Assembly: GCA_964533935.1 (NCBI GenBank)
Contig: CAZHOG010000002.1
Coordinates: forward strand, 23,529-87,528
Source: an uncultured Muribaculaceae bacterium
GTDB lineage: Bacteria; Bacillota_I; Bacilli_A; RF39; UBA660
Direction: 5' to 3'
Length of the DNA: 64,000 nucleotides
In this document: in pieces, positions 41,601-47,600 of the stretch
How the letters are laid out: each line of letters begins with the position of its first letter
Position numbering within the stretch: the stretch's first letter is position 1
Position numbers: made by a program

Positions 41601-44600
41601 TAGTAATTAGTACAACATTGTATATGCATTTTAATGTATACAACAAAACTTATACAACAAATAAAACTTTTTCACATAGTGCTTTTACCATTAACATGAA
41701 GGAAAGTATGATAACAAATATGGATTATAATGGGAAAGTAATAACTAAAGATAAATATTATTTAGTTTTAAAATTATATATTGCAAATAATTCAATAATG
41801 AAAAGTGCTCTTGATGTAAATAATTTTAGACTTCAAACAGATGATGGCTATTTGGTACCAACATTAGATAGAACTGAATATTTTATAGACTATGGCGTGC
41901 CATATTATGGAGACGATCTTCCTAAAAATAGTGAAAACATATACAATTTAGTGTATGAATTAAATAAAGATCAAGTTAAAAGGTCTTATAAACTTAAAAT
42001 ATTAGATAATATTGAATTTAAAATAGGTGAATTAAATGCTCATTATAAAATCTTAAGTATTAAACCAAAACGAGTTTATGAGGTGGAAGATACTGGTAAT
42101 TATAAAGTGAATGATAATATTTCATTGAATGAAAGTAATTTAGGAAATACAAAATATATTCTTAAAAATTACAAAATAACAGATTTGTATGATTATACAT
42201 ATGAAAAATGCTATTATAGTGAATGTAGAAGTGTAAATGATTTCGTTCAAGCAAATAATTTGAGTAGTAAGGTTAAGACTACATTATTAGTTTTAGATAA
42301 TAATCTAGAATTAGATGATCAAATTATTTATAAAGAGGGAATAAAAACAATTAATAAGTTTTATGAAGATTATTTTACTGTTGAAGTTGATGGAACTGAA
42401 TATACAACCAAAAACATTACACCAACTAATTTAAAAGACAAAATTGTTTTACAAACAATAGATAATATTAAAAGTGCAAAAGAACTAAATTTATTATTAA
42501 CTGTTAGAGATAAAAGATATAGAATTGAATTAAAAGGAGTTTAAACTCCTTTTTTATTGACAATAAAATAAGTTTTAGTTAAAATAAGGTTATATGTTTC
42601 AAGAAAGAAATATATAATATTATATAAGTTTGGGGCTTTAGCCAAGTGGTAAGGCAAGGGACTGCAACTCCCTGAGCACCAGTTCAAATCTGGTAGGCCC
42701 CTCCAATAGAATTTTACAATCGATAAATCGATTGTTTTTTTATGTAAAAATTAACAAAATTTGATTGATTTATTTCAAATATTTTGCTAATATTAAATCA
42801 TAGAGGAGGATACAAAACATGGATAAGAAAAATACTGTATTATTAACTGTTATCGCAGTTGCTACATTATTAGTTGCAGTAGTAGGAGCTACATTCGCAT
42901 ACTTCAGTGCAAACGTTACTGAAAACAATAAAACTCAAACAGTTTTAAAATCTGCTGAATTAGGAATTACTTTTACTGGAACTCAAGAAATTGTAGCTGA
43001 AAGTATTGAACCAGGATGGAGTGCTAACAAAGTATTTACTGTTGAAAATACTAGTGATTATGATATGACTTTTGATATTAATTTCACTAATTCATTAAAT
43101 AATTTTGCTGCACCTGAAGATTTAACTTATTCAATTGCTGCTGCATATTCTGCATCAACAAATGATAGTTATACAACTTCAAGCACTGTTCAAATGGTTG
43201 GTTTAGACGAAACTTCTGTTGGAGCTGCTGTTAAATCAGACTTTAGTGCAACTGGTACTTTACCAACTGGCGGTACTGTTGAAGGAAGTAATTATACTTA
43301 TAGTTCTGATGTTGTAAAAATTGTTAGAGTATTTATACCTGCACATACAACAGAACAATTTACAATGACTGCTGGATATACTTATCTTGAAACTGATCAA
43401 AATCAAGATCAAGGTAAAATGTTCAGAACTACAGTTAATGTAACTGCAAACGGAATTGATTCAGGATCAATTAAATAAAAAGCTATTTTATAGCTTTTTT
43501 TTTATTGTCCCCTTATTTTAAGTATGTTATAATTGAAACAAGATAAGGAGTTGCTATCTATGAATCAGATTGATCAAAAAGATTTAGAAGAAGATTTAAA
43601 AGAGCAATATGCAATCCTTGAACAGGAAATTAATGAAGACAAAAAGAAAAAAAGATTTTTAGTTGTGTTCATCTTTTTTGCTGTTATATTCTTAATAATG
43701 TTTGGAACAACATTTTCTTATTTTAGATTATTAAAAGTTGGAGATAATATTACTGAAAATACCAATTTATTAAAAAAATTATATTTTGAAAACTCTTCAA
43801 ATGATATTGATTTTAAACCTGGAGTATATAGTTATTATATTAGCTTTCCAAAAGGAACAACAAGTGTTGATTTAGGCTATGAATTAGTTAATGATAATTA
43901 TAAAATTACAATTACTGGAGATAAAGATTTAAAACCTGGTATTAATGAAATTAAAGTTGTGGTTACAGATAATAGTGGAAAATCAGAAGAATATATTATT
44001 TATGTTGAAATTGAAGAGGATACTCCCAAACCAACACCAGAAATTATTCCTAGTGAAATAAATATAGGATTAAAAAATTTATTAGTAAGCAATCATTCAT
44101 TAAATAAAACTTTTAATACAAAAACATACACATATGCTACAGATGATATAAAAAATGGTGAAGATTCATTAAATATTATTTTTGCTTTAGTAGATGACTC
44201 AAATAGTTTTAAAATTAAATTAAATGGCTATGAAGTAGTAAGAAAACCAGAAAAAGATGGAAATAGCAATTATATATTGAATCTTAATGTTGCAACTGAA
44301 CTTGTAGTAGGAGCAAATGATTTAGAAATCATAGTAAATGATTCAAATGGAAATAGCGTTAAATATAATTTAATATTAAATTTGTTGCCTAAAAATGATG
44401 AACAACAAATAGTAGAAATTAATGTAATATACAATGATAATAAAGGAGAATATAAATTTGATAATATAATTCCTGGATGGATTTCTTCTGACAAACAACT
44501 TATCGAAATAATAAATAAAAGTAATTATGATACAGCAGTAGATATTGATTGGACAAATGTATTAAATAATTTTACTAATAATAAAGATTTAGAATATAAA

Positions 44601-47600
44601 TTATACTATGAATATAAAGTAATTAAAACTGGTACTTTACCTAAAAATGATACAAATTTAATCACTAATTTAGAAATAAAAGCAAATAGTGATAATAAAT
44701 ATTATCTTGAATATAGCTATAAATATAGTGACCAAGATCAAAATGTTGATCAAGGGAAAAGCTTTAGCACTATTATTAGAGTATCACTTTCAAAATAAAA
44801 CCATTAATGGTTTTTTTTATTGTCTTTTTATCAAATATATTCTATAATTATAACAGAATAGGGAGGGACTCATGAATACTAGTTTTTTTCAGCATGCAAA
44901 ATCTATATTTAAAACGATTGCAATGATTCTTTCCTGGACTATCTTTGCCCTTTTGATATTAATTATAGGATTTTTAATTTATTATTTAGTGTGTACTAAT
45001 ATCTATGCAACTAAAGGTGAAAAATATGAACCAGAGTTTTCATTATACACAATTGTTAGTCCAAGTATGGAACCTAATATTAAAGTCTATGATGTTATTT
45101 TAAACACAAAAGTAACTGATCCTTCAACAATAAAAATAGGTGATGTAATAACATTTATATCAACAAGTAATATTTCAAATGGTATGACAGTAACACATAG
45201 AGTAGTTGATATTATTCAGGGAGAAAATGGGTTAGAATTTAAAACTAAAGGTGATAATAATTTATCACCAGATTCAGATACTGCTAAAGCATATAATTTA
45301 TTGGGAAAAGTATTCTTGAAAATACCACAATTAGGAAGAGTACAATTCTTCTTATCAAGTAGTGGAGGATGGTTGTTAATTGTTATATTCCCAGCGTTAT
45401 TTATCATAGTAAATGATATATTAAAAATTTCTAAGTTAAATAAAGCAAAGAAAAAATTAAATGAAGCAGATAACTCTGAACCAAATGATGAAAAGATTAA
45501 ACTTGAAACATTTAGAAAAGAAGAAATTTTAACTAAATTAAATAAAAAAGATTTAGCTAAAGCAAAAGAAATAGAAAATAAATTGAAATCAAAACAAAAA
45601 GAAGTTGCGGATAAAATTTCTGATTTAGAAAATGAATCAAATGAAATTATTAAAAATGAAGAAACTACTCCAGTTAAAAAAGTTGGATTCTTTGCAAGAA
45701 TAATTCAAGCATATACCAATCCATCAGAAGAAATAACAAAAACATCTGAAATTATAGAAAATAATGAAGAATCTAAAACAATTGATGTCGAAGAATTAAC
45801 ATTTGATTTAGAAAAAGCTATTTCTATAATTAATAAAAAACGTAAATTAAAAAATGTAATTCCTAAGAAGAAATCAATTGGAGCTGAATCTATAGAATTA
45901 AATGTAAGAAAAGTAAAACTTTTTGAAGATAATGAGATTGATCCTATAATAGAGGAACCGGTTGATGCAAAAATTAATATTGAAGAACCTGTTGAAGAAA
46001 AAATAAATGTTGAAACACCTTTAACAGAAAAGACAAGTAATGAGAAAGTTGGATTCTTTAAAAGAATTATTCAAGCATATCAAAATGATTCTGAACCAGT
46101 CGTTGATAATATGGTTCCAGAAAACAATAATAATATTATTGAAAATGCCGTATCTGAAGAAATGCCAATTATAGAAGAGATTTCTAACAAAGAAAAATCA
46201 AGAAAAACTGTTAAACATTCATATAATAGAAAATTAAAGAAATTACAAAAAGATGGTAAAAATATATTTGGTGAAAATGTTGAAGCAAGTGATTCACTAT
46301 TTAAAGAACCTTTGATAAATAATAATGTGTTTATTTCAAGAGAAACATCAAAAGAGGAAGTTGTAACAAATCCATTTGAAGAATTTATGCAACCTTTAGA
46401 AGAACCACCAAAACCAGAAATCGAATTACCTAAACTTAAAAAATAGTCAAGCAATTTGACTATTTTTTTATTTAATTATACATATACTTGACAAATCTAT
46501 ATTCGCATGCTATACTTTAGTTACCAATGGGGGTTGGTTGATGTGAAATCTATTAATAAATTAATAGCATACTATGTATGCGAAATTATTGTTGTAATTT
46601 GTTTAGTTGGAGTAAGTATACCATTATGGCAAAAGTTTGATAATTCTCAAACTGCTAAAGTTGCTCAAATGTATGATACAATGGATTACTTATATTTGAA
46701 TGTAGACAAATATATTGAAACAGAAAAAATTGAGGATAATATTGCTATAGTTAATGATACAAATACACAAAGAAACTATGTTTTATTATTAAAACTTGAT
46801 AAAAATATTGATTATACTAATTTAAATGTTAATCTTAATGAAGAACAAGTTTATTTATCAGATATTATTTATAATAAGGATGATAGTTATAACTATTTTA
46901 ATATAGGTAGTGGTAATTTAGTTGCTAACCAAGTTAAATATAATTTAACATTCTTAGATGATAGTATTGATTATAAAACAATCAATTATGAAATTATTGA
47001 ATCAGAAGATATCTAATAGATATCTTTTTTGCATATTAAATATATTGTTAAACAAACTAATATATGATATATTCTATCTTGAATGTATTAAAGAGATATT
47101 TGGAGGGAATTATGTATAAATTAGTTTCAAAATATAAACCAAATGGTGATCAACCAGAAGCAATAAAACAATTAGTTGATGGTTTGAATTCTGGAAAAAG
47201 AGATCAAGTCTTATTAGGAGCAACTGGAACAGGAAAAACTTTTACAATTGCCAATGTTATAAAAGAAGTGAATAAACCAACTTTAGTTTTAGCACATAAT
47301 AAAACACTTGCTGGACAACTTTATTCGGAACTTAAAGAATTATTTCCTGAAAATCATGTAGAATACTTTGTATCATATTACGATTATTATCAACCAGAAG
47401 CATATGTTCCATCAAGTGATACATATATTGAAAAAGATTCTTCTATAAATGATGAAATAGATGAATTGAGACATGCTGCAACATCAGCTTTAATTAATAA
47501 TAGGGATACAATAGTAGTTTCTTCAGTTTCTTGTATTTATAATATTGGAGAAAAAGAAGAATACGTAAATAAAATGCTTACATTAGAAAAAGGCATGAAT

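Follow-up and report, generated by a model that had tools for sequence, protein, structure and literature searches.

In Bacillus subtilis, loss of the last 20 residues of the signal peptidase SipW impairs adhesion and eps expression and leaves peptidase activity unaffected (Terra 2012, as cited in PMC13566338). A donor strand has been described for the fiber protein TasA (PMC9674648) and for BsaA of Clostridium perfringens, in which it is disordered in the monomer (PMC11580942). BsaA also has an intermolecular isopeptide triad, N35/E56/K74 (PMC11580942). Donor-strand fibers of the TasA/BsaA type are so far known from work on Bacillus, on Clostridium and on a small number of archaea. Here we analyzed a stretch of 64,000 nucleotides (contig CAZHOG010000002.1, positions 23,529 to 87,528; "the window") from an uncultured gut bacterium, in which a tRNA-Cys gene is followed by two genes for secreted TasA-like proteins (P1 and P2) and a gene, sipW, for a SipW-type signal peptidase with a very long C-terminal tail. 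All coordinates are positions in this 64-kb window, and the genes of the cluster are all on the + strand. The G+C content of the genome is about 24%.

Our preferred interpretation, which we consider probable on balance, is that this is a vertically inherited locus of uncultured gut Bacilli for a SipW-dependent surface fiber of the TasA/BsaA type, in which the tail of the peptidase serves as a cytoplasmic arm. The initial annotation of this DNA had described a tRNA-Cys-adjacent cluster of TasA-family genes and sipW, and this description held: P1 passes the profile TIGR04088, 39 of 52 P1 homologs match PF12389, and the peptidase passes TIGR02228. The evidence supports a TasA-SipW cluster whose second subunit is a mosaic, and it does not support the scaffolding or adhesive role proposed for the tail.

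P1 (42819-43478, 219 amino acids), the putative major fiber subunit, is a TasA/BsaA-like protein. It has the make-up of a Sec-type preprotein, in which a SipW-cognate signal precedes a predicted beta-sandwich like that of TasA. It carries the sequence GATFAYFSA, and its signal (residues 1-27) passed TIGR04088, the profile of SipW-cognate signals, with 21.1 bits for the whole protein and 25.9 bits for residues 1-44 against a cutoff of 19. The best full-length family match was to TIGR04090 (BsaA family; 35.3 bits, E = 9.7e-9, residues 14-121). The match to PF12389 (Peptidase_M73, TasA/camelysin) had an E value of 2.5e-4 and spanned residues 10-84 only. The matches in the 39 homologs (E up to 0.01) reached 6e-9, and many homologs have a precomputed PF12389 annotation. 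Neither a search of PDB with the single P1 sequence (no relevant match) nor a Foldseek search of PDB with its model (no match at E up to 0.001) identified a structural relative.

In the AlphaFold2 (AF2) model of the P1 monomer (mean predicted local distance difference test, pLDDT, 81), an N-terminal helix and a low-confidence stretch (residues 24-47) precede a beta-sandwich (residues 50-213). About residues 28-47, disordered and next to the signal, correspond in position to the donor strand of TasA and BsaA and may have the same role. Residues N36/N37, E57 and K71 are candidates for the Asn-Glu-Lys triad of an isopeptide bond, and all three occur together in 28 of the 52 homologs. Residues 9-29 (LT.IA.ATLLVA..GATFAYF) were essentially invariant in the 52 homologs, even though overall identity goes down to about 30%, which suggests sequence-specific recognition of the P1 signal. 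Such near-invariance is unusual for a signal peptide and appears to be new.

P2 (43560-44798, 412 amino acids) is the putative minor or accessory subunit. Its start is most likely ATG at 43560 and not TTG at 43533, because a ribosome-binding site, AAGGAG, lies at 43546-43551, the -10 hexamer of a promoter-like site ends at 43533, and the gene callers chose the product of 412 amino acids. The cytoplasmic N-terminus is therefore about 31 amino acids long; the extension claimed by the initial annotation exists and its length of 40 amino acids does not stand. This extension (43560-43655) has the motif D-L-x-E-Q-Y-A-x-L-E followed by KKKKR. In 19 homologs, DL.EQYA.LE.E..EDKKKKR was nearly invariant, with invariant columns at L9, D12, L13, Q16, Y17, L20, E23, E26, D27, K28, K29 and R32. 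Among proteins from related and distant loci, EQY..L was present in 16 of 18 large P2-class proteins and in none of 55 small P1-class proteins. A conserved cytoplasmic motif of this kind ahead of the P2-class signal anchor appears to be new.

The hydrophobic segment that follows (43656-43724) ends in GTTFSYF and has a core like that of a SipW signal. GATFAYFSA and GTTFSYF had been taken as SipW-cognate signals in P1 and P2, respectively. Both motifs are present, and the assignment is borne out for P1 only: whole P2 gave no match to TIGR04088 at E up to 0.1, and its N-terminus resembles that of P1 only in the GTTFSYF core and the preceding hydrophobic stretch (BLASTP E = 3e-4). One of the two refutations named by the initial annotation, N-terminal regions that do not score as SipW-cognate signals, thus applies to P2 and not to P1.

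The rest of P2 is a mosaic, in agreement with the earlier description of a chimeric TasA with two Ig-like internal repeats. Two cadherin-like beta-sandwich domains, at 43800-44006 (PF12733, 31.0 bits; cutoff 24.2) and at 44109-44372 (22.5 bits, just below the cutoff), are similar to each other (E = 2e-5), and P2 as a whole scored 38.3 bits against PF12733. The C-terminal TasA-like domain (44379-44786) is paralogous to the P1 core and holds the block QNxDQGKxF. The relationship of this block in the two proteins (DQNQDQGKMF/DQNVDQGKSF), noticed earlier, is confirmed by BLASTP, which aligned P1 with residues 283-418 of P2 over 181 columns that include it (E = 2e-14) and by a comparison of the P1-family profile with P2 (hhalign probability 98.6%, E = 6e-16). 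P2 thus consists of a signal core similar to that of P1, two cadherin-like Ig domains and a P1-like domain. We detected 38 homologs with the same architecture. P2 evolves fast: its nearest homolog is just 50% identical, compared with 88% for P1. P2 may be a minor subunit that acts either as a membrane-proximal anchor or as a distal adhesin, and the evidence favors neither.

The third gene (44872-46446) encodes a peptidase of 524 amino acids. Its core (44872-45438) is a signal peptidase I of the ER/archaeal type, with a first transmembrane helix (TM1, about residues 15-47), a catalytic domain and a second transmembrane helix (TM2, about 159-189). Hydrophobic windows of 19 amino acids start at residues 11-29 and 159-171, and helices are modeled by AF2 at 3-48 and 166-201. 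The core scored 96.0 bits against TIGR02228 (residues 26-183; cutoff 51.85). Its score against the Bacillus SipW equivalog NF046067 was 91.7 bits with a cutoff of 190, and hence not at the level of an ortholog. S65, H109 and D128 were invariant across 20 homologs. Ser65 (codon 45064-45066) is the putative nucleophile and lies in the active-site block SPSMEP (starting at nucleotide 45058), which is present as annotated; His109 (codon 45196-45198) is its probable partner in catalysis, by analogy with the Ser and His of B. subtilis SipW (Tjalsma 2000, as cited in PMC13566338). The pLDDT of the core was mostly 70-90, dipping to 56 at residues 61-70.

The tail (45439-46446, residues 190-524) consists of a Lys cluster, a charged helix at residues 206-259 and a disordered remainder. 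The annotated Lys/Glu-rich extension of about 330 residues is real: about 326-335 residues follow TM2 (E 16.9%, K 14.7%, I 10.7%, N 9.8%). The hydropathy profile has two membrane segments only; KISKLNKAKKK directly follows TM2, and the tail comes after TM2 and a +7 Lys cluster. The catalytic domain of type I signal peptidases faces outward. From the two transmembrane helices, the basic cluster (positive-inside rule) and the outward catalytic domain, the tail is predicted to lie in the cytoplasm, opposite the catalytic domain. In the AF2 model, the long charged helix had a pLDDT of about 59-75, and most of residues 254-500 were below 50, with short helices at 274-281, 313-325, 393-404 and 447-460. 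The tail beyond the long helix is thus predicted to be intrinsically disordered. A Pfam scan of the tail alone returned only noise (E at or above 0.15) and no domain.

The duplication previously reported within the tail was found in a reduced form. The amphipathic motif KVGFF[AK]RIIQAY does occur twice, as KVGFFARIIQAY at residues 271-282 and KVGFFKRIIQAY at residues 393-404, and the duplicated segment is just a 17-codon motif with no larger block. At the DNA level it is a direct repeat of 51 nucleotides, 80% identical and 366 nucleotides apart. Copy 1, KVGFFARIIQAYTNPSE (45679-45729), contains the AF2 helix at 274-281 (hydrophobic moment 0.59-0.60) and copy 2, KVGFFKRIIQAYQNDSE (46045-46095), the helix at 393-404 (up to 0.71); both are predicted short amphipathic helices. 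The helical hydrophobic moment of KVGFF.RIIQAY is 0.58-0.71, and we take the motif to resemble the amphipathic membrane-targeting helices of the MinD/FtsA kind. Apart from its two occurrences in this protein, KVGFFARIIQAY was found a single time, in the nearest relative P0041.

To compare the tail across the lineage, we used 80 related loci, 158 homologous SipW proteins, 104 representatives of clusters at 50% identity, and 58 non-redundant tails. A relative of this peptidase is encoded in 334 species-level genomes, labeled Bacilli bacterium, Tenericutes, Erysipelotrichaceae, Mycoplasma sp. CAG:956, Candidatus Ventrenecus or Candidatus Onthocola. The labels Mycoplasma sp. CAG:956 and Candidatus Onthocola presumably belong to the GTDB order RF39. 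In the related loci, the recurring gene order started with P1-like genes, one to four in number, and went on with one large P2-like gene (380-1473 amino acids), sipW, and a gene for a small membrane protein (ORF4). The cluster is often flanked by a trio of genes (UP383, LysM and UP533) and tRNA-Cys on one side and by uvrB on the other. We take the locus to be vertically inherited, with its core synteny conserved.

Among the 158 homologs, from related loci, the tail had a median length of 118 amino acids (range 6-326). Among the cluster representatives it reached about 380 amino acids, with at least 100 amino acids in 55 of 104, at least 200 in 23 and at least 300 in 9. The tail in the window lies at the long end of a common and labile feature of the lineage, and its size alone is no sign of elaboration. 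The tails are otherwise unalignable and share a juxtamembrane helix with K[KR]EEI, the motifs NIF[DG]E and EPDP[LI], and [ED]LPKLK near the C-terminus. In the window, the last of these is ELPKLK at 46423-46440, the sole instance of an ELPKLK-type motif in the 64 kb. The pattern [ED][LIM]P[KR][LIM][KQ] was present in 24 of the 58 non-redundant tails; 500 shuffles gave 0.10 on average and never more than 1. The 5-mers KEEIK (11 tails), RKEEI (9) and NIFDE (8) also exceeded the shuffle maximum of 7. These short conserved motifs, chiefly [ED]LPKLK, appear to be new. Literature searches on lengthened tails of SipW and on TasA in bacteria of the RF39 type gave nothing relevant, and the cytoplasmic motifs and lineage-wide long tails appear to be undescribed in the literature searched.

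Two further observations concern individual relatives. A third class of proteins, with the conserved N-terminus NYK..FK[KR]E...GTSYALF, follows sipW/ORF4 in some related loci (L031 7221-7916, L032 6746-7429, L039 7209-7850, L056 4435-5820, L062 6892-7524 and L075 6892-7521) and is absent from the window. In L006 (3591-3664), L016 (3434-3507) and L018 (2156-2229), the tRNA-Cys is on the opposite strand with the flanking order kept, which points to local inversion of a single tRNA gene.

On our preferred interpretation, the fiber system might work as follows. SipW would cut P1 near GATFA|YF, and possibly P2 too. The freed, disordered residues 28-47 of P1 could then serve as the donor strand by which each subunit fills in the sandwich of its neighbor, and so build a fiber. 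P2 would be a minor subunit, the membrane anchor of the fiber or its adhesin cap. The weak hairpins after each gene, together with separate promoters, may set the stoichiometry of the subunits. The tail, with its Lys cluster, long juxtamembrane helix, two amphipathic helices and ELPKLK, would most likely serve as a flexible arm for docking to a cytosolic partner or to the inner face of the membrane. It could couple or regulate fiber production; in B. subtilis, the short cytoplasmic SipW tail has such a role for matrix genes.

Several findings weigh against this interpretation. A fiber, cleavage or polymerization has not so far been observed in any member of the lineage, and a partner for the tail motifs has not been identified. 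P1 is well below the TIGR04090 cutoff of 60 with its 35.3 bits and 1.1 bits under the gathering cutoff of PF12389 (21.4; cutoff 22.5), and P2 fails TIGR04088, with no match for its residues 1-77 at E up to 10. The P1-family profile did not find TasA in PDB and gave only weak matches to AbpX (E = 0.24). The composition of the tail (E, K, N, I) is as expected from AT-biased drift. In the related locus L006, whose peptidase core is 71% identical, SipW has 206 amino acids and a tail of 6 amino acids, and P1, P2 and ORF4 are kept. The core system can therefore do without the tail.

The last two points lead to the most serious alternative. The tail could be a mostly unconstrained, low-complexity, disordered extension that expands and contracts neutrally by mutation bias, with at most the helix and a few residues that matter. 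We regard this as less likely than not by some distance and still substantial, because L006 is nearly tailless and because co-occurrence gave no support for a pairing of the tail with the EQY helix of P2: the median tail was 92.5 amino acids with an EQY-bearing P2 and 84 without (Mann-Whitney p = 0.34). We rejected that pairing as unsupported, and L006 argues against a strict need for it. Neutral drift would account for tail lengths from 6 to 326 amino acids in related loci and to about 380 among the cluster representatives, for loss of the tail in L006 with the rest of the cluster kept, for a composition dominated by residues with AT-rich codons, and for a pLDDT below 50 with merely 51 nucleotides of the duplicated block recognizable. 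It fits poorly with an open frame of 325 codons, whose probability by chance is about 1e-15 at the base composition of the tail, with the occurrence of ELPKLK and other 5-mers far above shuffle expectation in otherwise unalignable tails, and with the presence of an unchanged KVGFFARIIQAY in a relative that shares just 74% identity in the peptidase core.

Another explanation, which we consider unlikely, is that the peptidase is the housekeeping type I signal peptidase of these small genomes and not one dedicated to fibers, and that the tail serves general secretion, for instance by contact with the ribosome or the translocon, like the basic C-terminal tails of YidC/Oxa1. The core synteny beside uvrB in hundreds of species would suit such a role, strongly basic stretches such as KKKNRRNRRR terminate many of the short tails, and no LepB-type signal peptidase motif was found in the 64-kb window. 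The window, however, is a small fraction of the genome, and absence of a second peptidase is not shown by it. The gene is almost always directly preceded by genes for proteins with SipW-cognate signals, and the peptidase scores as the archaeal/ER type, which is dedicated in Bacillus and Clostridium (PMC7395162).

A more far-reaching proposal, for which we hold out only slight hope, is that the cytoplasmic elements (the KEEIK helix, EPDP and ELPKLK of the tail together with the EQY..L helix of P2) form an undescribed control layer of the peptidase. If so, the peptidase would recognize a cytosolic partner or the cytoplasmic extension of its substrate, or be gated by it, and this would settle whether a TasA-like preprotein is set free as a fiber subunit or stays in the membrane as an anchor.

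The initial annotation had suggested a scaffolding or adhesive function for the enlarged tail. Only the size and repeat content of the tail and the link of the B. subtilis SipW C-terminus to surface adhesion speak for this, and we find an extracellular module of this kind in fiber or biofilm architecture very improbable. The position of the tail after TM2 and the +7 basic cluster put it on the cytoplasmic face, it lacks a folded domain, a motif for anchoring to the cell wall and any additional hydrophobic segment, its AF2 model is disordered, and its length varies from 6 to more than 350 amino acids within the lineage. The B. subtilis effect, moreover, is regulatory and exerted via a cytoplasmic tail, according to PMC13566338.

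The tail is genuine, and its origin as an assembly or frameshift artifact joining sipW to an unrelated downstream gene, which the initial annotation had named as its refutation, can be dismissed: the 524-amino-acid product recurs unchanged, with the same neighbors, on two contigs, L001 and L002, that stem from different sequencing runs, the frame is continuous with no internal start or ribosome-binding signal at the junction, both the juxtamembrane helix and the terminal motif are retained in frame by homologs of 290-458 amino acids, and so long an open frame by chance is as improbable as given above, while nothing in this locus supports such an artifact and only P0268 illustrates that such fusions or miscalls exist in databases. 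P0268 is a cluster representative of 654 amino acids in which a sigma-70 (RpoD-like) sequence follows the SipW core, either as a genuine fusion or as an artifact of gene calling or assembly.

The arrangement of the locus was as follows. The tRNA-Cys(GCA) gene (42632-42705) was found by ARAGORN and scored 66.7 bits in Rfam. In 9 of 12 related loci a tRNA-Cys lies between UP533 and the first P1-like gene, on either strand; it is a syntenic landmark and no island boundary. A search for RNA families in the locus, covering riboswitches and other RNA elements, returned this tRNA alone. Directly 3' of the P1 stop codon, an A/U-rich hairpin followed by a U-run (43477-43499) is a possible leaky terminator: its fold has -7.7 kcal/mol with a z score of -4.5, equaled by none of 200 shuffles, and it is under the G+C criterion of the terminator scan. 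A/U hairpins with U-runs also follow P2 (44797-44814; weak, -4.8 kcal/mol, z = -1.8), and a hairpin and U-run follow sipW (46444-46462; -5.9 kcal/mol, z = -3.4). Promoter-like sites, which are consensus matches only, lie 5' of P2 (43505-43533; TTGTCC, 17 nucleotides, TGnTATAAT), of sipW (44820-44848) and of ORF4 (46488-46516; TTGACA, 17 nucleotides, TGnTATACT). With hairpins 3' of P1, P2 and sipW and promoter-like sites 5' of P2, sipW and ORF4, the four genes look like semi-independent units and not like one tight operon.

ORF4 (46543-47016) encodes a protein of 157 amino acids, most likely from GTG at 46543, and uvrB follows from 47064. The ORF4 product is a single-pass membrane protein with an invariant Glu in its helix and a beta-rich ectodomain, and it had no match in Pfam or NCBIfam. 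It was detected by HMM in 35 of 82 loci, usually directly 3' of sipW, and it belongs to the conserved cluster. Two candidate identities found no support. As a third TasA-like protein it gave an hhalign probability of 1.4% against the P1 family (E = 0.038), and the motifs that align are no evidence. A prepilin-type signal was rejected by inspection: the N-terminus has the conserved Glu, and the Gly/Phe context is missing.

The trio on the other side of the cluster (39235-42544) is syntenic with it in about 15 related loci. It consists of UP383 (39235-40386; an ORF of 383 amino acids, 368 according to the gene caller), a double-LysM protein of 149 amino acids (40432-40881), and UP533, a multi-pass membrane protein of 533 amino acids (40943-42544). 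UP383 and UP533 had no family match. A few kilobases 5' of the fiber cluster (33382-38738) are genes for a GGDEF diguanylate cyclase (33382-34473), a DUF6020 membrane protein and a phosphoketolase.

Elsewhere in the window, an OLE (Ornate Large Extremophilic) RNA at 58034-58535 (+ strand) scored 214 bits in Rfam, for which the gathering score is 50. It lies between murA (56735-57997) and an ORF of 171 amino acids (58551-59066) without an NCBIfam match, and its host here is a gut bacterium of 24% G+C and no extremophile. A tmRNA gene was found at 14954-15308 (Rfam 115.9 bits), and the tag peptide given by ARAGORN, VHRYKIYYENCLGFYNEFY, looks atypical. About 580 nucleotides downstream is a gene for a large serine recombinase (CcrB/XisF-like; 15891-17687). 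The segment from the tmRNA gene to the recombinase gene (14954-17687) could be a mobile element integrated at ssrA. At about 14.5-15.9 kb, the GC skew changes sign and the gene orientation switches, beside mnmE, jag/khpB and yidC on the minus strand. The region of about 11000-16000 looks like an origin-proximal one; dnaA was not searched for.

Compared with the tapA-sipW-tasA operon of B. subtilis, the locus likewise has a probably dedicated SipW-type peptidase beside secreted proteins with the cognate signal (PMC9674648; PMC13566338), a major subunit predicted to be a beta-sandwich whose N-terminal strand is disordered, and an accessory protein that resembles it at the N-terminus. There, too, the C-terminus of SipW varies and lies in the cytoplasm (PMC13566338). 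In contrast to B. subtilis, the order here is subunit, subunit, peptidase and membrane protein, and a TapA homolog was not detected. The accessory protein has Ig-like domains, a TasA-like domain of its own and, at its cytoplasmic N-terminus, a conserved motif. In the peptidase, the tail has about 330 residues, compared with about 20, and the equivalog score is 91.7 with a cutoff of 190.

The sipW-bsaABC locus of C. perfringens, where BsaA polymerizes by donor-strand exchange with an isopeptide lock, resembles this one in having several TasA-like paralogs, and its family profile, TIGR04090, is the best for P1. Oligomers of BsaA are reportedly attached to the membrane instead of being linked to the wall (PMC11580942; PMC7395162), and there is no LPXTG motif here. 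P1, however, has 35 bits against the 60-bit cutoff of that family, the N-E-K triad is represented by candidate residues, and the locus contains no vWA protein (BsaC), two-component system or sortase. The TasA-like fibers of archaea, namely the bundling pili AbpA/AbpX and the CanX cannulae, have the peptidase family TIGR02228 in common with this locus, and the P1 family gave weak sequence or fold matches to AbpX, the Pyrobaculum bundling pilus 7ueg and CanX.

In YSIRK/GS signals and in the ESPR of autotransporters, a conserved motif lies N-terminal to the hydrophobic core of the signal in one class of surface proteins. EQY..L of the P2 class is placed likewise; there is no sequence relationship, and the P2 motif is acidic, helical and about 25 residues long. 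If our preferred interpretation is right, the machinery known from Bacillus, Clostridium and a few archaea is also present in uncultured low-G+C gut Bacilli, and the locus is a candidate for encoding an adhesion or matrix structure in a little-known section of the animal gut microbiota. It would add cytoplasmic features, the long disordered tails with their short motifs and a motif of one substrate class, to a system usually seen as purely extracellular, and these features give handles on the still unexplained second function of the C-terminus of B. subtilis SipW.

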